A DNA stretch of 64,000 nucleotides from an uncultured delta proteobacterium (lineage in GTDB: Bacteria > Myxococcota_A > Polyangia > Fen-1088): positions 48,279 to 112,278 of the forward strand of contig CAVTRY010000017.1 in the NCBI GenBank assembly GCA_963737265.1. The letters are read 5' to 3'. Positions 14,023-64,000 of this stretch are shown here, piece by piece. The notes under the pieces are model-generated. The model searched no databases. It was not told the origin of the DNA and saw nothing but the letters and a program-made list of their open reading frames with translations. The first letter of the stretch is position 1, and the number at the start of each line of letters is the position of its first letter. A program made the translations under genes and the position numbers.

Positions 14023-14572
14023 GGCGAGGGAGTATCGGACGGTCGGGGGCGTGGGTCAACCCACGACCGTGGCGCGGGTGCTTCCCTGAAATGGGGGCTG
14101 GGGCTTCACCTCGCCCCGCGCAGGTGGGATCGGAGGGAAAAACAGGGAGGAACGGAGGACCAGAGGGATCACGGGTTGGGTTGACGAGGCGGCGGAGACC
14201 CTCGCGAAGTACGGGGACGTGGAAATTGACGAGCAGGCCAACCGGCAGTCGTAGGAGCTTGAGATAGGTAATGACCTGTGCCAAGTGGACAGGAAGCAAC
14301 TGCTCTACCGCCTTGACTTCGACGACCAAACGGCCTTCCACCATGAGGTCGAGGCGATAGCCGCAGTCGAGGTCAATGCCTTTGTACTGCAGAGGAATCG
14401 CGACCTGACGTTGCGTGCGAAATCCACGCAGGCCTAGCTCGCGCGCCAGGCAGTGCTCGTAGGCCGACTCAAGCAGCCCGGGACCGAGGTGACGGTGGAC
14501 TTCGATGCAGGCGGCGATAATTTGCCCAGTAAAGTCATGCTGTCTCTGATTCTCCGTTCCTCGCTGTTCCAT
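13970..14572 (-). CDS. GxxExxY protein (PD-(D/E)xK-like), copy 1; no stop codon inside the element
   Basis: [48 protein letters not shown]. Confidence 0.9.
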   Translation of the reverse strand: MEQRGTENQRQHDFTGQIIAACIEVHRHLGPGLLESAYEHCLARELGLRGFRTQRQVAIPLQYKGIDLDCGYRLDLMVEGRLVVEVKAVEQLLPVHLAQVITYLKLLRLPVGLLVNFHVPVLREGLRRLVNPTRDPSGPPFLPVFPSDPTCAGRGEAPAPISGKHPRHGRGLTHAPDRPILPRRVDPRRPARPHPSSLSR

Positions 14573-14653
14573 ATCTGCGTTTTCGGCGGCACTCCGCCAA
14601 AAGTTGCTACCTCACCGAGCCGCCGGCTGGGCCCCCGTTTCAGGGATGCACCC
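14076..14653. mobile_element. TIR-bounded mini-element carrying a GxxExxY gene, copy 1 (578 bp)
   Basis: 23-bp TIRs GGGTGCTTCCCTGAAATGGGGGC (14076-14098) and GCCCCCGTTTCAGGGATGCACCC (14631-14653); flanked by CCGTGGCGC at 14067-14075 and 14654-14662. Confidence 0.8.
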
Positions 14654-14662
14654 CCGTGGCGC

Positions 14663-15242
14663 GGGTGCTTCCCTGAAATGGGGGCTGGGGCTTCACCTCG
14701 CCCCGCGCAGGTGGGATCGGAGGGAAAAACAGGGAGGAACGGAGGACCAGAGGAATCACGGGTTGGGTTGACGAGGCGGCGGAGACCCTCGCGAAGTACG
14801 GGGACGTGGAAATTGACGAGCAGGCCCACCGGCAGTCGTAGGAGCTTGAGATAGGTAATGACCTGCGCCAAGTGGACAGGAAGCAACTGCTCTACCGCCT
14901 TGACTTCGACGACCAAACGGCCTTCCACCATGAGGTCGAGGCGATAGCCGCAGTCGAGGTCAATGCCTTTGTACTGCAGAGGAATCGCGACCCTGACGTT
15001 GCGTGCGAAATCCACGCAGGCCTAGCTCGCGCGCCAGGCAGTGCTCGTAGGCCGACTCAAGCAGCCCGGGACCGAGGTGACGGTGGACTTCGATGCAGGC
15101 GGCGATAATTTGCCCAGTAAAGTCATCCTGTCTCTGTTTCTCCGTTCCTCGCTGTTCCAGATCTGCGTTTTCGGCGGCACTCCGCCAGAAGTTGCTACCT
15201 CACCGAGCCCCCGGCTGGGGCCCCCGTTTCAGGGAGGCACCC
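14663..15242. mobile_element. TIR-bounded GxxExxY mini-element, copy 2 (580 bp); gene frameshifted
   Basis: Near-identical tandem copy with the same TIRs; third CCGTGGCGC at 15243-15251; extra C near 14991; CTG in place of ATG at 15160. Confidence 0.8.
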
Positions 15243-45169: not shown

Positions 45170-45239
45170 CTGGAAGCGTGGGCCGTGCCGGCGACAGCGG
45201 CGACCCCGGCCGGCACGATATTCGCAGAGCTTGCCGGCC

Positions 45240-46310
45240 ATGCAGCCTCGTATCCAAAACGGCGGCCAGGGAGCCAGGATCATTCCTTTCGTCCGACCGA
45301 ATTTCCGACCGAATCTCCGACCGAATCCCGGCCGACCGGCCGAGATTCCGACCAACCCACCGCGCCTTCTCGACCAAGTCCGAGCAAGCCTGCGAGCCCG
45401 GCACTACAGCCGGCGCACCGAGAAGGCGTACGTCGCATGGATTCGCCGATTCATCCTGTTCCACGGCAAGCGCCATCCTGAAGAGATGGGCGGGGTCGAA
45501 GTTGGCGCGTACCTTTCCAGCCTGGCCAGCGAAGCAAAAGTCAGCGCTTCGACGCAAAACCAGGCGCTGGCGGCGCTGCTATTCCTTTATCAGCAAGTGC
45601 TGGGGCGCGAGCTGGAATGGCTGGGAGAACTGGTTCACGCCAAAGGTCCGGTGCGCGTACCCGTCGTGCTGGGACGTGACGAAGCGCGATCTTTGCTCAC
45701 GCATTTGCAGGGCCCGGCGTGGCTGATTTGCGCGCTTCTCTACGGCAGCGGCATGCGCTTACTCGAGGTGCTGCAGTTGCGCGTCAAGGACATCGACCTG
45801 AATCGCCGCGAAATCACCGTTCGCAGAGGCAAGGGCCAGAAAGACCGCCGAACTGTTCTACCCGGCACGCTGGTCGAACCCCTGCGCGCCCACCTGGCGG
45901 CCGTCAAGACGCAGCACGATGCGGATATCAACCTGGGTGCCGGCGCCGTGGTTCTGCCTGATGCCATCGGTCGCAAGTACCCGAGCGCCCCGCAAGAATG
46001 GATCTGGCAGTGGGTCTTTCCCGCAACCCGCACGTACACCGATCTCGCAAGTCGGGAAGTTCGTCGCCACCACCTGCACGAATCCGTCATCCAGCGCGCC
46101 GTTCGCCGCGCCGCCGTGGCCGCGCGCATTCCCAAGCTGGTCAGCCCCCACACCCTGCGTCATTCCTTCGCCACCCACCTGCTGGAAGACGGCTACGACA
46201 TCCGCACCATTCAGGAGTTGCTAGGCCACAAAGACGTGGCCACGACCATGGTCTACACCCACGTCCTGAACCGCGGCGCTGGCGGAGTCCGAAGCCCTCT
46301 CGACCACTGA
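45240..46310 (+). CDS. intI: Integron integrase (tyrosine recombinase)
   Basis: [20 protein letters not shown]; GMRLLE (R), GKGQKDR (K), IntI-specific insert [44 protein letters not shown]. Confidence 0.96.
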
Positions 46311-46511: not shown

Positions 46512-46718
46512 GGTCAAACGACTGGCAAGGCGACGGGTATCGGAGGGCCCGGACGGAACAATATCTCAGGTCGGCGTGCGACTGGGCGTCGCCGGCCGTA
46601 CCACTTGCGGCGGCGATCGGTGCTCGCGACGGCAATCACGGCAGGTCGGCGAACCTTGGCGCTGGCATCGGCAGCGAAGATGTTTGATCTCACAGGATCC
46701 CAAGGACGAGGGTTCGCC
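46506..46718 (+). other. Cassette 1: ORF-less gene cassette
   Basis: Bounded by core GTTCGAC (46505) and inverse core GTCGAAC (46719); no credible ORF. Confidence 0.75.
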
Positions 46719-46884
46719 GTCGAACAAGCCGTTGCAGCGCTCGTAGGCAGTGCAAGTAAAAAGAACAGGGAGTGATTCGGGTCGTCTGGGCACACGAGAT
46801 CCGTTCCGCGGTCAGGAAGATGCGGTGGAAAGGATCAGGTGCGCGAAGAAGATTTGAGCGGGCGAGAGATCGGGAGGCAATCGG

Positions 46885-47225
46885 CCTGGTAATCGAAACG
46901 CTCCAGTAGGATGTCCGCGAGGGCCGGCATCGAGTCAGCTTGCAACGGAGATTGGGTCAGGTCGATGGATCCTCAGGGTGCCTCGAAACAGACAGCGCTC
47001 TTGCACAAGGCAGAGATGAGCTTCAACAGGAGGTCACCCGTCGGATATCTCACACGTTCAAGGAATTGGTTTGCTTTGGTTGTTTGCTCCTTTTCTGCAA
47101 GTGGGTCTGACCAAGATGGACAGGGTCAGATCAAAAATCCTCAGGGTGCCTCAAGACAGACGGCGCTCTTGCACATGGCAGAGATACGCTGCAACAGAAG
47201 GTCACCCTTCGGAAATCTAGAATGT
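46885..47225 (-). ncRNA. Predicted bridge/seek RNA: two target-binding loops plus one donor-binding loop (also in the non-coding ends of copies 2 and 3)
   Basis: Stem/internal-loop/stem modules whose loop strands match attC target halves and the element circle junction; RNA boundaries approximate. Confidence 0.75.
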
Positions 47226-47255
47226 TCAACATGGGTCGTCCCCATACCAGCATGG

Positions 47256-48524
47256 CTACACCGTCACCTGCAGACGGCGGGTGTCGAAGAGCTTGCTGCT
47301 ATCAAAGGTGCCACCGCGACCGACGTGGTACAGCCCCTTGGCCAGCTTGCGCATCAGCGCGACGGCAGCTCGCGAGGCTCGGCCGCCGTCTCGTTGCTTT
47401 TTGCGCTGGTACCAGGCGTTGGCGATGGGATCATCCTGAATCCAGCGGAAGATGGCGAGCCAGAGTAGCTGGCGTACGCGGGATGGACCACGCTTGGTGA
47501 TCTTGATCTGACCGTGCATGGTACCGCTGCTTTTCTCCTTGAGGTTGAGGCCCATGGCTTTGAGGAAAGCGCGTGTACACGAGTACGATCGTGCATCACC
47601 GACCTCGGCGAAGATGGCGGCAGCGGTGGTGCGGCCGACGACGGGGGCAAGCGCGGCGGCGGGCGTGGTGGCGGCGAGTTTTTCGACTTTCGTCTTGGCC
47701 GTGCTGAAGGCCCGGTGGGCGTCATAGGCCTCTTCGGCGATTACCATCAAAGCGTCGCGTTCAAGCCCGACCATCGGGACGCCGACGGAGGTGCTGGCCG
47801 AGGCGACAACGGCAGCAACGTCGTCGTCGGCAATCAGCCTGTGACTGATACCACGAAGGAGCTTCGTCGCCTTGTCCGGGGCAGCGGCGACATCGGCAGG
47901 ACCGCCGATACGCGCGACCAGCGCCATAAGCGATGCCGAGGTCAAATCAAGCAGGCTGGGCAACTCGGGCCAGTGGCGAGCGAGCCAGCTTTCCAAGCGA
48001 TGCACGAGCTGCAGGTAGCGCTCCTGGTGCAGATCCATGATGGCCAGTGCTGCCTTGAGCTGCCGACGTTCTGGGACTTCGTCAGGCAGGCGGGTGGAAA
48101 GGCCGTCGGCGTGCAGCCTGGCGATGATGGCGGCAGCCTTGGCGTCGTGAAGACTGGGCACGCCGTCGAAGATTTCCTTCGCATCGTGGGTGCGCTTGCC
48201 GCTGACCATGAAGATCGGAAAGCGGTCCTGTTCGAGCTGGTGGCGAAGCACATCGCCGTAGGTTCCGGAAGGCTCCATGACGGCTTCGACGATGATGCCG
48301 GCGGTGCGGTAGCCGCGCAGGATGGAGAGCACCGTGGGGTTCTGCTCTGGGGCCTTCCAAGAGATGGTGTGCAGCACACGCCCGTCGGCGCCAGCGAACG
48401 CTGCAACCATGTCGACCTTGGCGACGTCGATGGCGAGGACCAGCTTGCCGCCCAGGTCGGCGGGCGAGATGCTTTGTGGTTGAAAATCATTGACGGGCAT
48501 TCTGCGATAGATACGCTTCTTCAT
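47256..48524 (-). CDS. IS110-family recombinase, copy 1
   Basis: RuvC-like LAIDVAK, VMEPSGTY, LHDAKAA; C-terminal GL....SSG....ITKRG, AVALMRKL; start inferred from AAGGA RBS. Confidence 0.92.
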   Translation of the reverse strand: MKKRIYRRMPVNDFQPQSISPADLGGKLVLAIDVAKVDMVAAFAGADGRVLHTISWKAPEQNPTVLSILRGYRTAGIIVEAVMEPSGTYGDVLRHQLEQDRFPIFMVSGKRTHDAKEIFDGVPSLHDAKAAAIIARLHADGLSTRLPDEVPERRQLKAALAIMDLHQERYLQLVHRLESWLARHWPELPSLLDLTSASLMALVARIGGPADVAAAPDKATKLLRGISHRLIADDDVAAVVASASTSVGVPMVGLERDALMVIAEEAYDAHRAFSTAKTKVEKLAATTPAAALAPVVGRTTAAAIFAEVGDARSYSCTRAFLKAMGLNLKEKSSGTMHGQIKITKRGPSRVRQLLWLAIFRWIQDDPIANAWYQRKKQRDGGRASRAAVALMRKLAKGLYHVGRGGTFDSSKLFDTRRLQVTV

Positions 48525-48665
48525 GGGGATGACATCCTTCGTCATGGTTTCGGACTTCGGCACTTTTGGGACGTCCCCGTTTCCATTTGCAACTACCTTT
48601 AGCTGACTGACGACCACCCTCCCTCGCTTCGCTCGGTCGGGTGCTCGCCGCTTAACGGCAAGGCG

Positions 48666-48896
48666 TTCGACGGACAACCGCGGTTTCGGGAAGGTTCCTC
48701 GGAGGTTCGCTGGCGGGAAAATGCTTGCAACGGCGGCCAGCGATCTGTCGGCGCGAGGCGCACCATTCGCAGCGATGCGGGCTCGCGGCCGGCGATGCGG
48801 GAAGGTCAGCGAGTCTGTGATCGCAAGATCGGTAGCGAAGTCGGGCGACCGGGGAATGGCTCTCGCGGACGAGTCGCAGTGGTCAGTGCCATTGCC
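48666..48896 (+). other. Cassette 2: ORF-less gene cassette related to cassette 1
   Basis: Core GTTCGACGG 48665 / CCGTCGAAC 48895; collinear motifs shared with cassette 1. Confidence 0.75.
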
Positions 48897-48988
48897 GTCG
48901 AACAAGCCGTTGCAGCAGACGATCCCGCCGCAGAGAAATCGGAGTAACATCGACGAACCGTTCGTGCGGCGGGCTCGCTGCTGAACGG

Positions 48989-50874
48989 GTGCGCCCAGCA
49001 TGGGCGTCGTCTTGGGGGTGCAAGTCCCCCCGAAAGGAGACCATCCCAAACGAAGCGAACTGCAACTGCGAAAGGGCGACCAATCGTGGGGAGGAAGCAG
49101 GGAGCGAAACCGCGGGCTGATGAACAAAAACCGGATAAGAGGCGGCGCCGAGCGGGGCGAGTGGGCCCGTTGCCACAAAGCCTCGATGGTCAAAGCTCAG
49201 GCTACGTAGATCCGGCGGTCGTGCGGGGAAGGACGACGTACTTACCTGGGGAGATCTCGCCTTGTGCCTGAAAGGGCGACGGCGCGGACGCGACGGGGCG
49301 AGAAGTCAGCAGAGGTCGTAGTAGCGAAGTCGAAGCCGGGGCGGCGATATCACCGACGCCGGAAGTCTTTGGCGATGCGAAGGACTGAACGAGAAGGAGA
49401 GCGAAACGAACATGCGTCTCGGAAGCAAACGGCCTCAGATGACCAGGCAACTGGAGCTAACGTTTTCAAATAGGGGTGAAACCCCGACGGGAAAACGAAG
49501 CGAGGAAGCGCCGACGGCGACGTGTGAAAACGAGCGCTCGGGAGCGAGCGGCCTGATGGAGAGGGTGTGCGAACGCCCGAACCTTTTGGCCGCGCTGAAG
49601 CGAGTGAGAAGGAACAAGGGCAGTCCCGGCATCGACGGGATGACGGTGGATGAATTGCCGATACACCTGCGCGAATACTGGCCACGGCTGCGCGAGGAAC
49701 TGCTCGCGGGGACGTACCAGCCCGCGCTTGTGAAGGAGCAACTCATACCGAAGGCCAGCGGAGGAATGCGCAAGCTTGGCATTCCGACGGTGGTCGACCG
49801 ATTCATCCAGCAGGCTGTATTGCAGGTTCTGCAACCGATGTTCGACCCGGACTTCTCAAAGCACAGCCACGGTTTCCGGCCTGGGCACCGTGCGCACGAC
49901 GCCATCGTCGAGGCGCAGGGGTATATCCAGGGCGGACGCAAGTGGGTGGTAGACGTGGACTTGGAGCAATTCTTTGACCGCGTGAACCACGACGTGCTGA
50001 TGGGAAGACTGGCGAAACGCATCGGCGACCGTCGTTTGCTGGGGCTCATCCGGCGTTACCTCGGGGCCGGCATTATGGCTGGCGGGGTGGCGACGGAGCG
50101 GTACGAGGGAACGCCACAAGGCGGCCCCTTGTCACCGCTGCTAGCCAACGTGCTGCTCGACGAAGTGGACAAGGAGCTGGAGAAACGCGGGCACGCATTC
50201 TGCCGGTACGCTGATGACTGCAACGTATACCTTCGGTCGCGGCGTGCGGGCGAGCGTGTGATGGGGCTGCTACGGCGGCTCTACGCGGGACTGCGACTTC
50301 AAGTCAATGAAACGAAAAGCGCGGTGGGCTTGGCGTGGAACCGGAAAATCCTGGGTTACACATTCTGGGTAAACCGGGAAGGAACGGTGAAGCGCGCGGT
50401 GGCAGACAAAGCCCTTGCCACGATGAAGGACAAAGTCCGGAACATCACGAGGCGGACGGGCGGGCAAAGCATTGGCCAGGTCTGCAAACGGCTGGGGGAA
50501 TATCTGCGTGGTTGGAAGGAATACTTCCGGCTCGCGGACACGCCTCGGGTCTTTGGCAACTTGGACAAATGGATTCGCCGTCGCCTACGGGCTCTCCACT
50601 TGAAACACTGGGGACAACAATCGACCGTCTATCGGGAACTGCGGGCTCGGGGGATGTCCCATGACGCAGCAAGCGTAGTGGCCGTGAACTGTCGCCGCTG
50701 GTGGAAAAACTCGGCTAGTATGATGAACGTGGCATTTCCCATTCGCTACTTTGACCAGTTGGGGGTACCCCGGCTGGCCACGTAACCTCAACTTCCCGAA
50801 CCGCCCGGTGCGGACCCGCACGCCGGGTGGTGTGGCAGGGGTCCTTGACGATCTGTCGAGGCCCCTATGCCGAT
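48989..50874 (+). mobile_element. Group IIC intron
   Basis: 5' GTGCGCCCAGCATGGGCG; domain V GAACCGCCCGGTGCGGACCCGCACGCCGGGTGGTGT (CGC triad); 3' CCCTATGCCGAT; removal restores attC2. Confidence 0.93.
49412..50785 (+). CDS. ltrA: Group II intron reverse transcriptase/maturase (no endonuclease domain)
   Basis: NKGSPGIDG, RKLGIPTVVDR, SHGFRPG, GTPQGGPLSP, RYADD, maturase GWKEYF. Confidence 0.95.
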   Translation: MRLGSKRPQMTRQLELTFSNRGETPTGKRSEEAPTATCENERSGASGLMERVCERPNLLAALKRVRRNKGSPGIDGMTVDELPIHLREYWPRLREELLAGTYQPALVKEQLIPKASGGMRKLGIPTVVDRFIQQAVLQVLQPMFDPDFSKHSHGFRPGHRAHDAIVEAQGYIQGGRKWVVDVDLEQFFDRVNHDVLMGRLAKRIGDRRLLGLIRRYLGAGIMAGGVATERYEGTPQGGPLSPLLANVLLDEVDKELEKRGHAFCRYADDCNVYLRSRRAGERVMGLLRRLYAGLRLQVNETKSAVGLAWNRKILGYTFWVNREGTVKRAVADKALATMKDKVRNITRRTGGQSIGQVCKRLGEYLRGWKEYFRLADTPRVFGNLDKWIRRRLRALHLKHWGQQSTVYRELRARGMSHDAASVVAVNCRRWWKNSASMMNVAFPIRYFDQLGVPRLAT

Positions 50875-50923
50875 CAAGGCGTTAGCCAGACCAAGGAACC
50901 ACTACCCACGATAGCGAGCAACC

Positions 50924-51743: not shown

Positions 51744-53613
51744 CTCTCGTAGGCAGTGCAAGTAAAAAGAACAGGGAGTGATTCGGGTCGTCTGGGCACA
51801 CGAGATCCGTTCCGCGGTCAGGAAGATGCGGTGGAAAGGATCAGGTGCGCGAAGAAGATTGAGCGGGCGAGAGATCGGGAGGCAATCGGCCTGGTAATCG
51901 AAACGCTCCAGTAGGATGTCCGCGAGGGCCGGCATCGAGTCAGCTTGCAACGGAGATTGGGTCAGGTCGATGGATCCTCAGGGTGCCTCGAAACAGACAG
52001 CGCTCTTGCACAAGGCAGAGATGAGCTTCAACAGGAGGTCACCCGTCGGATATCTCACACGTTCAAGGAATTGGTTTGCTTTGGTTGTTTGCTCCTTTTC
52101 TGCAAGTGGGTCTGACCAAGATGGACAGGGTCAGATCAAAAATCCTCAGGGTGCCTCAAGACAGACGGCGCTCTTGCACATGGCAGAGATACGCTGCAAC
52201 AGAAGGTCACCCTTCGGAAATCTAGAATGTTCAACATGGGTCGTTCCAACACCAGCATGGCTACGTCGTCACCTGCAGACGGCGGGTGTCGAAGAGCTTG
52301 CTGCTATCAAAGGTGCCACCGCGACCGACGTGGTACAGCCCCTTGGCCAGCTTGCGCATCAGCGCGACGGCAGCTCGCGAGGCTCGGCCGCCGTCTCGTT
52401 GCTTTTTGCGCTGGTACCAGGCGTTGGCGATGGGATCATCCTGAATCCAGCGGAAGATGGCGAGCCAGAGTAGCTGGCGTACGCGTGATGGACCACGCTT
52501 GGTGATCTTGATCTGACCGTGCATGGTACCGCTGCTTTTCTCCTTGAGGTTGAGGCCCATGGCTTTGAGGAAAGCGCGCGTACACGGGTACGCTCTTGCA
52601 TCACCGACCTCGGCGAAGATGGCGGCAGCGGTGGTGTGACCGACGACTGGGGCAAGCGCGACGGCGGGCGTGGTGGCGGCGAGTTTGTCAACTTTGGTCT
52701 TGGCCGTGCTGAAGGCGCGGTGGGCGTGATAGGCCCCGTCAGCGATGGCCATCAAAGCGTCGCGTTCAAGGCCGACCATCGGGACGCCGACGGAGGTGCT
52801 GGCCGAGGCGACAACGGCAGCAACGTCGTCGTCGGCGATCAACCTGTGACTGATACCACGAAGGAGCTTGGTGGCCTGGTCTGGGTGAGCGGCGACATCG
52901 ACAGGACCGCCGATGCGCGCGAGCAGCGCCATGAGAGACGCCGAAGTCAAATCAAGCAGGCTGGGCAACTCGGGCCAGTGGCGAGCGAGCCAACTTTCCA
53001 AGCGATGCACGAGCTGCAGGTAGCGCTCCTGGTGCAGATCCATGATGGCCAGCGCTGCCTTGAGCTGGCGACGTTCTGGGACTTCGTCAGGCAGGCGGGT
53101 GGAAAGGCCGTCGGCGTGCAGCCTGGCGATGATGGCGGCAGCCTTGGCGTCGTGAAGACTGGGCACGCCGTCGAAGATTTCCTTCGCATCGTGGGTGCGC
53201 TTGCCGCTGACCATGAAGATCGGAAAGCGGTCCTGTTCGAGCTGGTGGCGAAGCACATCGCCGTAGGTTCCGGAAGGCTCCATGACGGCTTCGACGATGA
53301 TGCCGGCGGTGCGGTAGCTGCGCAGGATGGAGAGCACCGTGGGGTTCTGCTCTGGGGCCTTCCAAGAGATGGTGTGCAGCACACGCCCGTCGGCGCCAGC
53401 GAACGCTGCAACCATGTCGACCTTGGCGACGTCGATGGCGAGGACCAGCTTGCCGCCCAGGTCGGCGGGCGAGATGCTTTGTGGTTGAAAATCATTGACG
53501 GGCATTCTGCGATAGATACGCTTCTTCATGGGGATGACATCCTTCGTCATGGTTTCGGACTTCGGCACTTTTGGGACGTCCCCGTTTCCATTTGCAACTA
53601 CCTTTAGCTGACT
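51744..53613 (-). mobile_element. IS110-family element copy 2 in attC3
   Basis: Same ends as copy 1; CT core at both junctions (51744-51745, 53612-53613). Confidence 0.92.
52261..53529 (-). CDS. IS110-family recombinase, copy 2
   Basis: Near-identical to copy 1 with a diverged internal block. Confidence 0.92.
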   Translation of the reverse strand: MKKRIYRRMPVNDFQPQSISPADLGGKLVLAIDVAKVDMVAAFAGADGRVLHTISWKAPEQNPTVLSILRSYRTAGIIVEAVMEPSGTYGDVLRHQLEQDRFPIFMVSGKRTHDAKEIFDGVPSLHDAKAAAIIARLHADGLSTRLPDEVPERRQLKAALAIMDLHQERYLQLVHRLESWLARHWPELPSLLDLTSASLMALLARIGGPVDVAAHPDQATKLLRGISHRLIADDDVAAVVASASTSVGVPMVGLERDALMAIADGAYHAHRAFSTAKTKVDKLAATTPAVALAPVVGHTTAAAIFAEVGDARAYPCTRAFLKAMGLNLKEKSSGTMHGQIKITKRGPSRVRQLLWLAIFRWIQDDPIANAWYQRKKQRDGGRASRAAVALMRKLAKGLYHVGRGGTFDSSKLFDTRRLQVTT

Positions 53614-56104: not shown

Positions 56105-56181
56105 CTTGGACTCCCCATCGTCGGCGGCGGATTCGGACGGAAGGAGCCGGCGAGGAATCCACCATGGGACTTAAGTCGGCT

Positions 56182-56252
56182 GGCTAACAAGCCGTTGAAG
56201 CTGTCGATCGGCCGCAGACGGCCGCTCGCAGCTTAACGGCAAGGCGTTAGCC
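56182..56252 (+). other. attC4, intact, 71 bp
   Basis: GGCTAAC AAGCCGTTGAAGCTGTCGATCGGCCG-CAGA-CGGCCGCTCGCAGCTTAACGG CAAGGC GTTAGCC; R and L boxes pair with extrahelical bases. Confidence 0.93.
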
Positions 56253-58279
56253 GGACCATGACCTTCACGAAGCTTCTACACCATTCCCGGACCAAGGAGA
56301 TTCATGCCCATCAGCGCGAAAGATGAACACGACCTCGACGTACTCGTTGACCAACACCATCGTCAAGCCGGGACCAAGCGGCGCGAGGACTTCTTCCCGC
56401 TCCTCTACGTTCCCCGACGGTTCAAGTGCATGCCCGAGGAACTACTTCCGCAGGTGGCCTTCGGGAACAACGACTACGGTATCGACGCCTACTACATCGA
56501 CCGTGTCGGCCGCAACCTCTACCTATATCAGTTCAAGTGGTCGGAAAACCCGCTCCTGTTCAGGGACTCCCTTGAGCGCCTCGCTGTCTCGGGGATGCAA
56601 CGAATATTCGGTTCGGCGCAAGTCGATTCTCAGCAGAACGAGGTGCTCCGCTCGCTTCGTGCCGATATCGAAGAGGCCCGGACTCTGATTGAGCGTGTCT
56701 ACGTTCATTTTGTTTTCAAGGGTGATATTGAGAAGGCCGAGTCGAGCGCTGGACTTGCTGATCGCAAAGAAAATCTGGAGAACAAGGCACACTTCGTGGA
56801 AGAATTCTTTGGGCGTCCAGTTCCCCTTGCCGTCGAGTACATCGCGGACCGCCGAACTGGGAACCGACCGCAGCATGGAGACTCGTACACTGCGTGGTTC
56901 GGCGACCATGTCAAATTTGAGATTCCTGGGGCTTCAGTCCGGATGCACATTGGATTTCTCCGGTTGGTCGACCTACATGACATGTACCGCGCCATAGGGC
57001 CGAAGTTCTTCGACCGCAACGTCCGCGCAGGGCTATCCCCGAACAACCAGCCCAACCTGAAGATTCGCGAGGCCCTCGGGAACATCGTTCTGAAGGAAGT
57101 CGAGCCAGCAGAATACTTTACCCTGAACCACAACGGCGTAACCCTCGCCGTGGAGCGCCTCGATTTCGCAGATGGCCAGGTTGGCCAGGTGACCTTCAAG
57201 GTCCCTAGGCTACTCAATGGCGCCCAGACCGTAACGAGCGTCGCCCGCTTCCTTGAAGACAACCATGATCACCCGGCCTTGAAGAGTGGCAGGGAACAGC
57301 TTTCGAAGATACGGGTGTTGGCCAAAGTCGTCGTCGACGATCCTTTCGGTCCTCTCGTAACAAAGGTGACCATCTCGAATAACCAACAGAATCCCGTTCA
57401 CCCCTGGAACCTTCGAGCGAATGATCGCATCCAGTGTGATCTTCAGGACAGGTTTGCCCAGGTAGGATTGTTCTATTCCCGTCAGGAAAATGGGTTCATC
57501 GCGCGTTCGGGTGATTGCGAAGGCAACGGCGTAGCCGCCGCTCCGGGGGCCGGCAAGGCGCTTCGCGCCTCCTCCGCTTCGCTCCGGCCCTACGGGTGAC
57601 GGCCTCCTCGCTGGCGGCTCAGGTGCTGCTATGCGACGACGAGGATCTCGTCGCCGCGCGCGACGGTGCGCGAAATGAAAAGTGGACGTCCGTCGGTGAT
57701 CCTTCGGGTTTATGCAAATCACGAGGAACTCCCAACGAACGTCCGTCCCTGGTATTTTGGCATTGCAGCTGGCCATTGCAAACGGCTGGCGTGTCAGTTT
57801 CGACAGCTACAGCGGTACCGATGGCTCCTGGCATGTACACCTGTATCCGACCAGGCAGTCGGCTGTGTGCTCCGGCTGTGGAGAGACCAAGCGCTGCGCG
57901 CTGGATATCAAGAATTGCGCCCGGGCCTGGCGTCATCTCGACGGTTGGGGCATCCGCACGGTCGTCATCGCGCCTCTGCGGCGCGTGCGCTGTCGCCGCT
58001 GTGGGATCCGGGTCGAACAGGTCCCGTGGGCGCGCACCGGCTCGCGCATGACTCACATGTTCGAGGCGGAGGTCCTGCGGCGTGCCCGCACGACTTCCAT
58101 TGCCGGCGTGTGCCGCCAACTCGGGCTGCACTGGACTACCGTCATGCGCCTCATCACCCACTGGGTCGAGGATGCGGTCGAGCGCCGCTTCCATCGCAAG
58201 CTTCGCATCATCGGCGTCGACGAGGTCAGCTACGGCCGAGGCCAGAACAAGTATCTGACCATCGTCTGGGACCACGAGG

Positions 58280-59567
58280 CAGGGTCATCGCATCTAAATC
58301 CCGAACGATCTTCGCGGTATAGCCGGCGCACCAGAGAGGAACGTTTTTTGATTGAAGGGCGATATCGTGGCTTGTTCGTAAGTCATGAAGCGAACAACCG
58401 TGGCGGAACGAGAAAAGGAAGAGCTGGCGGCATCGATCCTGGAGTACTTCGCGTCGGTGCCGGATCCGCGGGTGGAGCGGACGCGGCACCACGCGCTGAC
58501 GGACATCCTGATGCTATCGTTGTGTGCCGTGGTCTGTGGTGCTGACTCCTTCTGTGCTATCGAGACCTATGGGCGGGCAAGAGAAGCCTGGTTACGAACG
58601 TTTATCGGTCTGCGCGGCGGGATTCCCACACACGACACCATCGGGAGGGTGTTTGCAGCCCTGAATCCAGATGCCCTGGCTGAGAGGTTCCGGCAGTGGA
58701 TCTTGAGCGTGGCGCGACTCACGAAAGGCGAGGTCGTGGCCATCGACGGCAAGACGCTGCGACGATCCTTCCAAGAGGCCGGCAGCCACGCTTTCGTCCA
58801 CATGGTTAGTGCCTGGGCCACCAACAACCACGTGGTTCTTGGGCAGGTCAAGACAGAGGAGAAATCCAACGAGATCACTGCCATTCCGCGGTTGCTCAAG
58901 CTCCTGAAGATCAAGGGCTGTCTAGTAACTATCGATGCGATGGGCTGCCAGAAGCAGATCACCGCAGATATCCAGGACGCCGACGCGGATTACCTGCTCG
59001 CGGTGAAGGAGAACCAACCCACGCTCAGCGCTGAAGTGACGACAATCTTCGCGCATTGTCGTCGCGACCCGACGGGATTGGACGTGGATTTTCACGAGAC
59101 ACGCGATGTTGGGCACGGACGAACCGAGGTTCGCCGGTGCTGGACCACAAACATGGTCGAGAGCATCTCCCAGTACCAGGAATGGACGGGTCTGAGCAGC
59201 TTGGTATTGATCGAGTCCGAGCGCACGGTCTCGGGGCACACTTCAACCGAGTGCCGCTACTACATCAGTTCGCGAAAGAACCTCCCAGCAGATGCCGCTC
59301 TCGACGCCGCTCGGAAGCACTGGGGAATCGAAAATGAATTGCACTGGGTTCTCGACGTCACTTTCCGTGAGGACGAATGCCGTGTTCGCGCCGGCAACGC
59401 CGCCCAGAACTTTGCAGTGATGCGCCACATCTCACTCAACCTCCTCAAATCAGTCAAAGACTGCAGGCTCAGCATCAGGCTTCGCCGAATGCGCGCGGCA
59501 TGGGATCAGGACTTCATTCTGCAAGTCCTCATGGCCCAACCCGATGTGGGATGATGCGATGACCCTG
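58280..59567 (+). mobile_element. ISAs1-family element copy 1
   Basis: TIR CAGGGTCATCGCATC / GATGCGATGACCCTG; 10-bp TSD GACCACGAGG (58270-58279, 59568-59577). Confidence 0.95.
58385..59554 (+). CDS. ISAs1 transposase
   Basis: VPDPR, GIPTHDT, AIDGKTLR, KSNEITA, TIDAMGCQ, HGRTE, HWGIENELHWVLDV. Confidence 0.95.
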   Translation: MKRTTVAEREKEELAASILEYFASVPDPRVERTRHHALTDILMLSLCAVVCGADSFCAIETYGRAREAWLRTFIGLRGGIPTHDTIGRVFAALNPDALAERFRQWILSVARLTKGEVVAIDGKTLRRSFQEAGSHAFVHMVSAWATNNHVVLGQVKTEEKSNEITAIPRLLKLLKIKGCLVTIDAMGCQKQITADIQDADADYLLAVKENQPTLSAEVTTIFAHCRRDPTGLDVDFHETRDVGHGRTEVRRCWTTNMVESISQYQEWTGLSSLVLIESERTVSGHTSTECRYYISSRKNLPADAALDAARKHWGIENELHWVLDVTFREDECRVRAGNAAQNFAVMRHISLNLLKSVKDCRLSIRLRRMRAAWDQDFILQVLMAQPDVG

Positions 59568-60946: not shown

Positions 60947-61494
60947 CTCGTAGGCAGTGCAAGTAAAAAGAACAGGGAGTGATTCGGGTTGTCTGGGCAC
61001 ACGAGATCCGTTCCGCGGTCTGAAAGATGCGGTGGAAAGGATCAGGTGCGCGAAGAAGATTGAGCGGGCGAGAGATCGGGAGGCAATCGGCCTGGTAATC
61101 GAAACGCTCCAGTAGGATGTCCGCGAGGGCCGGCATCGAGTCAGCTTGCAACGGAGATTGGGTCAGGTCGATGGATCCTCAGGGTGCCTCGAAACAGACA
61201 GCGCTCTTGCACAAGGCAGAGATGAGCTTCAACAGAAGGTCACCCGTCGGATATCTCACACGTTCAAGGAATTGGTTTGCTTTGGTTGTTTGCTCCTTTT
61301 CTGCAAGTGGGTCTGACCAAGATGGACAGGGTCAGATCAAAAATCCTCGGGGTGCCTCAAGACAGACGGCGCTCTTGCACATGGCAGAGATACGCTGCAA
61401 CAGAAGGTCACCCTTCGGAAATCCAGAATGGTCAACATGGGTCGTTCCAACACCAGCATGGCTACGTCGTCACCTGCAGACGGCGGGTGTCGAA

Positions 61495-62865
61495 CAGGGT
61501 CATCGCATCTAAATCCCGAACGATCTTCGTGGTATAGCCGGCGCACCAGAGAGGAACGTTTTTTGATTGAAGGGCGATATCGTGGCTTGTTCGTAAGTCA
61601 TGAAGCGAACAACCGTGGCGGAAGCGCACCAGAGAGGAACGTTTTTTGATTGAAGGGCGATATCGTGGCTTGTTCGTAAGTCATGAAGCGAACAACCGTG
61701 GCGGAACGAGAAAAGGAAGAGCTGGCGGCATCGATCCTGGAGTACTTCGCGTCGGTGCCGGATCCGCGGGTGGAGCGGACGCGGCACCACGCGCTGACGG
61801 ACATCCTGATGCTATCGTTGTGTGCCGTGGTCTGTGGTGCTGACTCCTTCTGTGCTATCGAGACCTATGGGCGGGCAAGAGAAGCCTGGTTACGAACGTT
61901 TATCGGTCTGCGCGGCGGGATTCCCACACACGACACCATCGGGAGGGTGTTTGCAGCCCTGAATCCAGATGCCCTGGCTGAGAGGTTCCGGCAGTGGATC
62001 TTGAGCGTGGCGCGACTCACGAAAGGCGAGGTCGTGGCCATCGACGGCAAGACGCTGCGACGATCCTTCCAAGAGGCCGGCAGCCACGCTTTCGTCCACA
62101 TGGTTAGTGCCTGGGCCACCAACAACCACGTGGTTCTTGGGCAGGTCAAGACAGAGGAGAAATCCAACGAGATCACTGCCATTCCGCGGTTGCTCAAGCT
62201 CCTGAAGATCAAGGGCTGTCTAGTAACTATCGATGCGATGGGCTGCCAGAAGCAGATCACCGCAGATATCCAGGACGCCGACGCGGATTACCTGCTCGCG
62301 GTGAAGGAGAACCAACCCACGCTCAGCGCTGAAGTGACGACAATCTTCGCGCATTGTCGTCGCGACCCGACGGGATTGGACGTGGATTTTCACGAGACAC
62401 GCGATGTTGGGCACGGACGAACCGAGGTTCGCCGGTGCTGGACCACAAACATGGTCGAGAGCATCTCCCAGTACCAGGAATGGACGGGTCTGAGCAGCTT
62501 GGTATTGATCGAGTCCGAGCGCACGGTCTCGGGGCACACTTCAACCGAGTGCCGCTACTACATCAGTTCGCGAAAGAACCTCCCAGCAGATGCCGCTCTC
62601 GACGCCGCTCGGAAGCACTGGGGAATCGAAAATGAATTGCACTGGGTTCTCGACGTCACTTTCCGTGAGGACGAATGCCGTGTTCGCGCCGGCAACGCCG
62701 CCCAGAACTTTGCAGTGATGCGCCACATCTCACTCAACCTCCTCAAATCAGTCAAAGACTGCAAGCTCAGCATCAGGCTTCGCCGAATGCGCGCGGCATG
62801 GGATCAGGACTTCATTCTGCAAGTCCTCATGGCCCAACCCGATGTGGGATGATGCGATGACCCTG
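61495..62865 (+). mobile_element. ISAs1-family element copy 2 with 83-bp internal tandem duplication
   Basis: Same TIRs; TSD GGGTGTCGAA (61485-61494, 62866-62875); duplication 61541-61623 / 61624-61706. Confidence 0.95.
61683..62852 (+). CDS. ISAs1 transposase
   Basis: 389 aa, one substitution (DCR vs DCK) relative to copy 1. Confidence 0.95.
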   Translation: MKRTTVAEREKEELAASILEYFASVPDPRVERTRHHALTDILMLSLCAVVCGADSFCAIETYGRAREAWLRTFIGLRGGIPTHDTIGRVFAALNPDALAERFRQWILSVARLTKGEVVAIDGKTLRRSFQEAGSHAFVHMVSAWATNNHVVLGQVKTEEKSNEITAIPRLLKLLKIKGCLVTIDAMGCQKQITADIQDADADYLLAVKENQPTLSAEVTTIFAHCRRDPTGLDVDFHETRDVGHGRTEVRRCWTTNMVESISQYQEWTGLSSLVLIESERTVSGHTSTECRYYISSRKNLPADAALDAARKHWGIENELHWVLDVTFREDECRVRAGNAAQNFAVMRHISLNLLKSVKDCKLSIRLRRMRAAWDQDFILQVLMAQPDVG

Positions 62866-63997
62866 GGGTGTCGAAGAGCTTGCTGCTATCAAAGGTGCCA
62901 CCGCGACCGACGTGGTACAGCCCCTTGGCCAGCTTGCGCATCAGCGCGACGGCAGCTCGCGAGGCTCGGCCGCCGTCTCGTTGCTTTTTGCGCTGGTACC
63001 AGGCGTTGGCGATGGGATCATCCTGAATCCAGCGGAAGATGGCGAGCCAGAGTAGCTGGCGTACGCGGGATGGACCACGCTTGGTGATCTTGATCTGACC
63101 GTGCATGGTACCGCTGCTTTTCTCCTTGAGGTTGAGGCCCATGGCTTTGAGGAAAGCGCGTGTACACGAGTACGATCGTGCATCACCGACCTCGGCGAAG
63201 ATGGCGGCAGCGGTGGTGCGGCCGACGACGGGGGCAAGCGCGGCGGCGGGCGTGGTGGCGGCGAGTTTTTCGACTTTCGTCTTGGCCGTGCTGAAGGCCC
63301 GGTGGGCGTCATAGGCCTCTTCGGCGATTACCATCAAAGCGTCGCGTTCAAGCCCGACCATCGGGACGCCGACGGAGGTGCTGGCCGAGGCGACAACGGC
63401 AGCAACGTCGTCGTCGGCAATCAGCCTGTGACTGATACCACGAAGGAGCTTCGTCGCCTTGTCCGGGGCAGCGGCGACATCGGCAGGACCGCCGATACGC
63501 GCGACCAGCGCCATAAGCGATGCCGAGGTCAAATCAAGCAGGCTGGGCAACTCGGGCCAGTGGCGAGCGAGCCAGCTTTCCAAGCGATGCACGAGCTGCA
63601 GGTAGCGCTCCTGGTGCAGATCCATGATGGCCAGTGCTGCCTTGAGCTGCCGACGTTCTGGGACTTCGTCAGGCAGGCGGGTGGAAAGGCCGTCGGCGTG
63701 CAGCCTGGCGATGATGGCGGCAGCCTTGGCGTCGTGAAGACTGGGCACGCCGTCGAAGATTTCCTTCGCATCGTGGGTGCGCTTGCCGCTGACCATGAAG
63801 ATCGGAAAGCGGTCCTGTTCGAGCTGGTGGCGAAGCACATCGCCGTAGGTTCCGGAAGGCTCCATGACGGCTTCGACGATGATGCCGGCGGTGCGGTAGC
63901 CGCGCAGGATGGAGAGCACCGTGGGGTTCTGCTCTGGGGCCTTCCAAGAGATGGTGTGCAGCACACGCCCGTCGGCGCCAGCGAACGCTGCAACCAT
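62804..63997 (-). CDS. IS110 recombinase copy 3, partial; last residues replaced by ISAs1-derived tail
   Basis: Matches copy 1 up to SKLFDT, then reads into the ISAs1 end. Confidence 0.8.
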   Translation of the reverse strand: MVAAFAGADGRVLHTISWKAPEQNPTVLSILRGYRTAGIIVEAVMEPSGTYGDVLRHQLEQDRFPIFMVSGKRTHDAKEIFDGVPSLHDAKAAAIIARLHADGLSTRLPDEVPERRQLKAALAIMDLHQERYLQLVHRLESWLARHWPELPSLLDLTSASLMALVARIGGPADVAAAPDKATKLLRGISHRLIADDDVAAVVASASTSVGVPMVGLERDALMVIAEEAYDAHRAFSTAKTKVEKLAATTPAAALAPVVGRTTAAAIFAEVGDARSYSCTRAFLKAMGLNLKEKSSGTMHGQIKITKRGPSRVRQLLWLAIFRWIQDDPIANAWYQRKKQRDGGRASRAAVALMRKLAKGLYHVGRGGTFDSSKLFDTPGSSHHPTSGWAMRTCRMKS

Positions 63998-64000
63998 TGA

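Follow-up and report, generated by a model that had tools for sequence, protein, structure and literature searches.

Tandem putative guide modules in an attC-targeting IS110-family element of a chromosomal integron

Can one RNA-guided insertion sequence (IS) hold guides for more than one target? The question is raised by a 64,000-nucleotide stretch of DNA from an uncultured delta proteobacterium (contig CAVTRY010000017.1, positions 48,279 to 112,278, forward strand; here called the window), which holds a chromosomal integron whose cassettes and attC sites lie downstream of the integrase gene in the same orientation. Three attC sites of the window are broken at the identical position, and in the identical orientation, by copies of one element, an IS with a divergent IS110-family recombinase gene. 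We found two similar modules of about 80 nt in the non-coding region 3′ of that gene, each with a pair of arms that fit the two halves of attC targets. Very probably these modules are guide units of the seekRNA type that were duplicated and kept under selection, and we think it somewhat probable that the tandem pair serves as alternative target guides of an RNA-guided IS110-family element. The features concerned are these:

46740-48608, minus strand: IS copy 1, 1869 bp including the left-end AG/CT dinucleotide (IS orientation); interrupts attC1, in L″
47256-48545, minus strand: recombinase gene, 429 aa (P0002), divergent IS110-family DEDD/Tnp recombinase
47136-47215, minus strand: module 1 (the added copy), 104 bits against R1, the covariance model of the module
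47187-47195 and 47157-47163, minus strand: module 1 arms, 5′ GUUGCAGCG and 3′ CCGUCUG
46968-47047, minus strand: module 2 (at the ancestral position), 105 bits against R1
47019-47027 and 46989-46995, minus strand: module 2 arms, 5′ GUUGAAGCU and 3′ CUGUCUG

Anatomy and constraint of the modules

The non-coding region runs for 516 nt from the stop codon (47256) to the right end of the IS (46740), an IS1111-like long region 3′ of tnp. The two modules in it are 85–88% alike at a spacing of 168. As a direct repeat they extend over 93 nt at 85% identity (46969-47061 and 47137-47229), and blastn of the repeat as delimited in the original prediction, a reading of this DNA alone, gave 82 nt at 87.8%. 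That reading had described a bridge RNA with two target-binding loops and one donor-binding loop. Its guide strings, GTTGCAGCG and CCGTCTG for module 1 and GTTGAAGCT and CTGTCTG for module 2, are exactly placed on the minus strand at the arm positions listed above, its named stems occur once per module, and the fold it proposed (outer stem, internal loop, inner stem) was recovered by both RNAalifold and single-sequence folding. In the RNAalifold consensus of 17 distinct modules of this genome and its relatives, a large internal loop separates the outer helix (UCC/GGA, then GGGUG-A-CCU / AGG-CACCC) from the inner hairpin (CUCUGC / GCAAGAG); single-sequence folds agree with this consensus (z -2.84 and -1.59). 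Folded whole, the region (538 nt) is no more stable than its shuffles (z -0.70), so folding was analysed per module. No Rfam family was found to cover the non-coding region.

The 5′ arm is the reverse complement of the nine bases past the right end, and the 3′ arm has the same sense as the bases preceding the left end; the top-strand match lies 5′ of the bottom-strand match, as in IS1111-type seekRNAs. In L058 and L060, two relatives with a left junction of CG, the 3′ arm reads CCGUC-CG. Our own observation is that the IS left end begins with UC, the two bases that follow the 3′ arm (UU for module 2 in this genome); the 3′ arm plus UC thus reads the finished left junction, like the handshake guide of IS621. 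The genome holds five near-identical copies of the IS (three in the window, two more full ones on C11 and C13), along with one degenerate relative and several solo right-end footprints. It gives exactly ten module matches, two in each of the five copies, with no orphans and none in the degenerate copy.

Conservation along the region peaks at both modules and at a hairpin downstream of them (0.86–0.97; the modules 0.86–0.96). It is mostly lower elsewhere, at 0.43–0.47 before module 1 and 0.58–0.86 in the inter-module spacer, lowest beside module 1. Mean column entropy in two-module elements was 0.06 for stems versus 0.58 for unpaired positions of module 1 (32 distinct sequences), and 0.08 versus 0.47 in module 2 (33 distinct). 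Across 99 distinct modules, distant relatives included, 98.8% of cells are paired and 9 of the 18 pairs have changed on both sides; slid partners reach at most 55% and none of 500 shuffles attains the observed value, the alignment in this test having been fitted to the model, which favours structure. On such comparative evidence the module scaffold is a conserved RNA structure.

The downstream hairpin is a candidate for the donor part of the RNA:

46901-46940, minus strand: conserved hairpin GAUGCCG / CGGACAUC, flanked by AGCUGACU and CCUACUGGAG; candidate donor-end recognition, tentative

It is the most conserved part of the tail (0.91–0.97) and is kept down to 70% protein identity. The original prediction had placed its donor loop here, naming the strings AGCTGACT (46933-46940) and CCTACTGGAG (46901-46910), which are exactly placed on the minus strand. 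Against AG+TCAGCT of the left end, the 5′ flank AGCUGACU is complementary at 8/8 positions, and the 3′ flank CCUACUGGAG resembles the right end at 8/10, or at 8/8 with two bases bulged. The string matches are thus present as described; their significance did not survive comparison with chance. Of 1000 dinucleotide shuffles, 100 yield an 8-nt match to the 18-nt left end; the right-end arm is neither above chance nor the region's best right-end match. Right-end variants (CGTACGAG in L014, L015, L025, L028, L034, L055 and L056) are not tracked, the same arm being kept, and the two hairpin-flank positions opposite the junction dinucleotide vary without tracking the dinucleotide. For ISEc11 a short seekRNA without donor match is described as sufficient (PMC11187229), and possible donor-binding nucleotides have been placed in multi-loops of IS1111 orthologues (PMC11208160). 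From its sequence the hairpin remains a candidate donor-binding part. Module 2 was also tried as the donor loop and rejected, its arms fitting attC variants and not the circle junction (2/9 by eye).

Module number and insertion sites among relatives

Relatives were collected from genome contigs (18 loci) and metagenome contigs (80 loci), and R1 gave 119 matches in these 98 loci. Forty-four of them include both the gene end and the right end: one module is present in 9, two in 34 and three in 1 (L017), with non-coding lengths of 363–403, 448–542 and 567 nt, respectively. Distant relatives (38–63% identity) have one weaker module match each, in the corresponding place, and no internal repeats were found in the distant L018 and L020–L023. 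A search of 89 genomes of the same order returned only genomes already found. The downstream module lies 234 nt from the right end in relatives (235–236 nt in the copies of this genome), as does the sole module of one-module elements, and from this shared position we take module 2 to be ancestral and module 1 to be the added copy. A recombinase tree of 35 rows (quick IQ-TREE run, rooted on the 38–41% group) needs two changes of module number, the one-module state being ancestral. One is the only gain of the second module, basal to a 23-row clade (Shimodaira-Hasegawa-like approximate likelihood-ratio test 93) in which 23/23 rows keep two or more; the other change is a further gain to three in L017. 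The duplication proposed in the original prediction is therefore seen in the homologues as a derived state, gained once and retained, with one further gain.

The sites that the guides are to be compared with, and the two other window copies, are as follows:

46719-46739, plus strand: 5′ part of attC1 (R″ GTCGAAC, spacer AAGCC, L″ GTTGCAG, then CG)
48609-48671, plus strand: 3′ part of attC1, ending in R′ GTTCGAC
48895-49010, plus strand: attC2, an empty target, GTTGCAG-CA-GACGATCC
51746-53613, minus strand: IS copy 2, in attC3 (GTTGCAG-CT / CT-GACAG), with modules at 52141-52220 and 51973-52052
56180-56260, plus strand: attC4, an empty target, GTTGAAG-CT-GTCGATCGG
60947-64000, minus strand: IS copy 3, cut by the contig end, with modules at 61342-61421 and 61174-61253

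The attC sites at 46719, 48897, 51725, 56182 and 60926 carry R″ (GTCGAAC or GGCTAAC), the spacer AAGCC and L″ (GTTG[C/A]AG); the four variants, and the empty and occupied sites, are as had been predicted. Insertion is in one orientation, antisense to the cassettes, in the L″ of attC. The guides are identical in the three window copies, again as predicted, and a fourth copy (module at C13:376286-376365) has one change, C to A in the module-1 guide (GUUGAAGCG), yet sits in a GTTGCAGCG site. The nearest relative, L027, also has the guide GUUGAAGCG and sits in a GTTGAAGCG site (9/9); the solo right-end footprint C7:296249 is likewise in GTTGAAGCG.

Guides and right flanks were compared in 30 non-redundant combinations, L010, L016, L025, L029, L096 and L073 having been dropped where a duplicated or aberrant end obscured the flank. 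The best module matched its own right flank at 238/270, with a permuted mean of 222.8, a score reached in 1 of 20000 permutations; guides and insertion sites covary in the homologues, as the original prediction had expected. Where the target is a rare variant, the guide shows that rare variant too (ATTGCAGCG in L017, 9/9; GATGAAGC in L055, 8/9), and the rare target GTTGCACCC of L059 is met 9/9 by its own guide (8 by a gapped read). Guide position 5 (C or A) is concordant with the site in 6/6 one-module elements. In this genome, four of the five copies have a right flank that fits module 1 at 9/9, and the empty attC at 56186 fits the 5′ arm of module 2 at 9/9.

Several cases bear on module 2 in particular. 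At the site of copy 2 it fits 13/14 and module 1 fits 12/14 (9-nt 5′ arm plus 5-nt 3′ arm). The later module is strictly better in 4 of the 24 non-redundant multi-module elements, with junctions checked by eye (L028, 9 vs 7; L034, 8 vs 5; L070, 8 vs 7; L097, 8 vs 6). The second-module guide of L017 equals right flanks used by other elements, and its third-module guide is one position off two such flanks. These individual cases, together with the conservation, suggest that module 2 is in actual use.

Guides often have U at position 7 of the 5′ arm (GUUGCAUCG, GUUGAAUCG; for example L009, L032 and L019) where sites have G or C. Positions 2, 7 and 9 of the arm seem, from the matches, to be loosely read, and positions 1, 3–6 and 8 strictly.

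Proposed use as alternative target guides, and rival readings

The attC targeting, the IS1111-like layout and the duplicated, differently programmed target-loop module of the original prediction are supported. We lean slightly towards seeing in them a natural and evolvable guide array of one, two or three autonomous two-arm modules, each loading its own dimer, which would address several attC classes and escape the constraint set by the resident flank. The region would be transcribed with tnp from a circle-junction promoter, and the transcript cut to units of about 80 nt, as has been suggested for IS1111-type elements. In each unit two loop arms would be held out by a constant scaffold (outer stem, inner hairpin), the 9-nt 5′ arm (GUUGNNNCN) pairing with one strand right of the crossover and the 5–7-nt 3′ arm (NNGUC + NG) with the other strand left of it. 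The one-module ancestor underwent tandem duplication, with a third module added in one lineage, and the copies diverged at their guide positions. Each unit may load its own recombinase dimer; IS621, whose target and donor loops are supplied by different RNA molecules and bound by a dimer each, makes this plausible (PMC11208158). Either unit could specify the target, a GTTGCAG type via module 1 and a GTTGAAG type via module 2, and one element would recognise, and excise from, more than one attC sequence class, perhaps aided in end recognition by the conserved downstream hairpin. For ISEc11, donor flanks must match the seekRNA for excision and circle formation (PMC11187229); if so here, a second unit would keep excision from the old site while addressing a new class.

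That both modules are used as alternative target guides appears to us rather probable, and a number of results weigh against it. Module 1 alone gives 230/270, reached in 0/20000 permutations, an even stronger covariation than that of the best module, and it is strictly better in 12 of the 24 multi-module elements, with 8 ties. Of the predicted guide array, then, duplication and re-programming stand, and use of the second loop is where it falls short, the later module being better in only 4/24. If module 1 alone guided, position 5 would be discordant in 3/10 elements having both a C-type and an A-type guide, versus a background of 2/19 from elements without the site's letter altogether (L056 and the C13 copy of this genome), a difference that is not significant (rough Fisher p about 0.3, hand arithmetic); the sites of these last two fit neither module at position 5. 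The genome with L009–L013 has 0/5 insertions that fit module 2 (GUUGUGGCU) better than module 1; all five fit module 1 or neither. The 3′ arm covaries weakly with the left flank (392/20000 for module 1, 1448/20000 for the best module), and the two arms of one module are not significantly associated (Fisher p 0.28). The arms of module 1 partly pair with each other in its single-sequence minimum free energy fold, and the three-module state is known from one assembly. Contigs from RNA libraries (four metatranscriptomes, 85% likeness) cover parts of 46854-47173, for example 46854-47038 for X15, 46859-46985 and 47017-47173 for X16 and 46858-47100 for X18, and in X16 the summed contig depth over 46719-47201 exceeds that over the gene; this stretch had served to select the runs, the depth values apply to single contigs and DNA carry-over is possible, and as a sign of transcription these contigs are no more than a hint.

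The strength of module 1 invites the reading that it alone guides and that module 2 is kept for a different task at the RNA level. It might, for instance, serve transcript processing, help recombinase loading or stability, form a long seekRNA together with the downstream hairpin, or titrate as a decoy. Such a division would account for the covariation obtained with module 1 alone (230/270; 0/20000), for its better or equal fit in 20/24 and for the L009–L013 genome, where no insertion fits module 2 better; it would also suit the 5′ arm of module 2, which is nearly constant across the clade (GUUGAAGC[U/G]), as a structural element would be. We nevertheless consider it unlikely, because that constant arm is a perfect attC L″ variant that is used as a site (L028, 9/9; the empty sites of this genome), the 3′ arm varies among natural attC variants, four insertions clearly fit module 2 better, and the only guide of one-module relatives sits at the module 2 position, with position 5 concordant in 6/6. 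The modules might instead divide their labour, one matching the resident flanks for excision and the other picking a new target, so that duplication frees re-targeting from the need for donor flanks to match the guide. The flank match needed for circle formation by ISEc11 (PMC11187229) speaks for this, as do the stranding of resident copies by any one-guide element that mutates its guide and the C13 copy, still in a GTTGCAGCG site with the variant guide GUUGAAGCG. One-module relatives, however, transpose without a second module, and the proposal may be better seen as a special case of alternative guides than as an exclusive alternative to them; taken separately it is quite improbable.

Neither of two further readings, one without function for the extra copy and one without RNA, has much to recommend it. 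Tandem duplications of about 170 nt arise easily and the copies are only about 12–15% diverged, as a neutral duplication would have it, but the single gain has been kept in 23/23 sampled descendants, whose proteins diverge down to about 80%, both copies have nearly unchanged stems beside a decaying spacer, and the genome's one degenerate copy has no module match; we rate neutrality as very improbable. Least credible is an action of the modules as DNA, whether as recombinase-binding sites or as attC mimics. They do contain both target halves, but they are without the R″/R′ features of attC, compensatory changes keep their helices in distant relatives, and their layout, size of about 80 nt and arm order match those of purified IS1111-type seekRNAs (PMC11187229).

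The preferred reading, alternative target guides, can be set beside known systems. IS1111-type seekRNAs lie 3′ of tnp and are 82–96 nt long, 82 nt being sufficient, with the top-strand match 5′ of the bottom-strand match (PMC11187229), and the IS1111-attC elements ISPa21, ISPst6 and ISKpn4 insert near the 5′ end of attC, antisense to the cassettes (PMC3001079). The element described here is like ISKpn4, ISPst6 and ISPa25 in its RNA 3′ of tnp, its module of about 80 nt and its arm order (Siddiquee et al., 2024; PMC11187229), and like the IS1111-attC group in its target near the attC 5′ end and its antisense orientation (PMC3001079). As these are described, ISKpn4, ISPst6 and ISPa25 have one seekRNA of 82–86 nt, whereas our element carries a tandem pair of modules with differing guides and one relative carries three; the recombinase is also longer, at 429 aa, a separation drawn from the published descriptions. 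With the IS621 bridge RNA it shares internal loops and two arms that read both strands around a short core (PMC11208160; PMC11208158). That RNA, as reported, lies 5′ of the gene and has one target and one donor loop (Durrant et al., 2024; Hiraizumi et al., 2024), whereas in our element the RNA would lie 3′ of the gene with reversed arm order, the target loop is multiplied, a donor loop is a candidate only and the crossover dinucleotide is not fixed. CRISPR and TIGR arrays likewise alternate a constant scaffold with variable guides in varying unit number (PMC12045711); in contrast to these as described, here there are one to three units only, each a whole structured two-arm module, with no known acquisition machinery and with diversification by duplication and point mutation.

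In published accounts, an element has a single target loop in its bridge or seek RNA (plus a donor loop). We found neither tandem target loops nor tandem seekRNAs described in the literature searched, which excluded supplements (layouts of this kind might be shown in Supplementary Figs 6–7 of PMC11187229 or in the supplementary tables of PMC11208160); in particular there was none in the searched text of PMC11208160, PMC11187229, PMC11208158, PMC13604230, 10.64898/2026.10.21.760802, 10.64898/2026.08.14.744561, 10.1101/2025.10.25.684509 and 10.64898/2026.08.31.748434. If our reading is right, this would be the first natural multiplexed bridge or seek RNA. A module that is duplicated, re-programmed and kept would let target range evolve by module duplication, beyond guide mutation; it would suggest how a target can change despite the dependence of excision on the old flank, and offer a natural template for multiplexed guides in bridge-recombinase engineering.

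Recombinase, IS ends and integron setting

The recombinase scores above the cut-off for PF02371 (Transposase_20; 54.3 bits vs 21.3) and below those for PF01548 (DEDD_Tnp_IS110, the N-terminal RuvC-like domain; 26.9 vs 29) and NCBIfam NF033542 (112 vs 140). Only its C-terminal domain aligns with the IS621 and ISCro4 chains (E about 1e-3), residues 300–418 with 203–322 and 204–323, respectively, and a KSSGT stretch stands opposite the ESGSS region of IS621, within which we take S241 to lie. S241 is the catalytic residue of IS621 (PMC11208158). The weak ISCro4 alignment places Ala opposite the fourth acidic position; the five near-identical copies argue that the enzyme is probably active.

Members of the IS1111-attC clade sit on plasmid-borne class 1 integrons. 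A tblastn search of 72,556 plasmid records gave no match covering at least 80% of the recombinase, and 63 of the 63 matches found were below 60% identity (at most 39%), C-terminal and limited to about a quarter of the protein. With no full-length plasmid relative, and with scores below the PF01548 and NF033542 cut-offs, membership in the classical IS1111-attC clade is not supported by this indirect test, and the element is treated as analogous. As judged from these searches, the recombinase most likely represents an independent attC-targeting lineage outside that clade. It would be a second, apparently independent IS lineage parasitising attC, in chromosomal integrons of soil and peat Myxococcota-like bacteria.

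IS boundaries were set by comparing four full copies with their own flanks and with empty sites. In gene orientation the junctions read ...CGTC-AG-(TCAGCTAAAGG ... CCTACGAG)-CG-CTGCAAC..., with the IS in brackets, and the ends of copy 1 are:

46740-46762, minus strand: IS right end, ...TTGCACTGCCTACGAG in IS orientation, carrying a subterminal inverted-repeat arm
48585-48608, minus strand: IS left end, AG-TCAGCTAAAGGTAGTTGCAA in IS orientation, carrying a subterminal inverted-repeat arm

The subterminal inverted repeat is imperfect (AGGTAGTTGCAA vs AGGCAG-TGCAA, 10/12 with one gap) and the terminal extensions are 8 (+AG) and 5 bp; the IS1111 group is defined by extensions of 7 and 3 bp and repeats of 7–17 bp. 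In IS orientation, every close relative has AG as its left junction dinucleotide, L058 and L060 have CG, and the right dinucleotide varies (CG, AG, GG or TG). This asymmetry, as read from the junctions, fits a product with the donor dinucleotide on one side and the target's on the other, and exchange of one strand followed by replication would be one way to obtain it. L025, L029 and L096 have a short duplication of right-end terminal bases (e.g. CGAG repeated) between the IS and the attC half-site. A promoter and terminator scan of 46650-48700 found none.

The degenerate copy (C11:1196710-1198834) is 86% identical and has no match to the module model. Solo right-end footprints lie in attC sites at C7:295617, C7:296249, C13:450504 and C6:119466-119552 of this genome. 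They recall the IS footprints that Tetu and Holmes reportedly described in 2008 at the ends of Pseudomonas cassette arrays. Copy 3 is interrupted at about 61495-62865, where another IS sits close to the 3′ end of the recombinase gene. This other IS codes for a 389-aa DDE_Tnp_1 / DDE_Tnp_1_assoc transposase (61683-62852) and is repeated in part at about 58280-58625.

The integron itself is marked by the following gene:

45231-46310, plus strand: integron integrase gene (TIGR02249, 455.7 bits, cut-off 265)

It has the same orientation as the cassettes and attC sites and lies upstream of them instead of diverging from them, the array being followed here to 64000; the IS already occupies the first attC-like site (46719). 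Just past the empty attC2 is a group II intron (49070-50900), with intron domains at 49070-49385 (Rfam RF02001, 100.6 bits; RF01998, 34.6 bits) and a reverse transcriptase/maturase gene at 49412-50785 (TIGR04416, 389 bits). It lies on the same strand as the cassettes; published group IIC-attC introns are antisense to them. Unrelated to the guide modules, a pair of repeats of about 590 bp, 97–98% alike, is found at 14062-15224.

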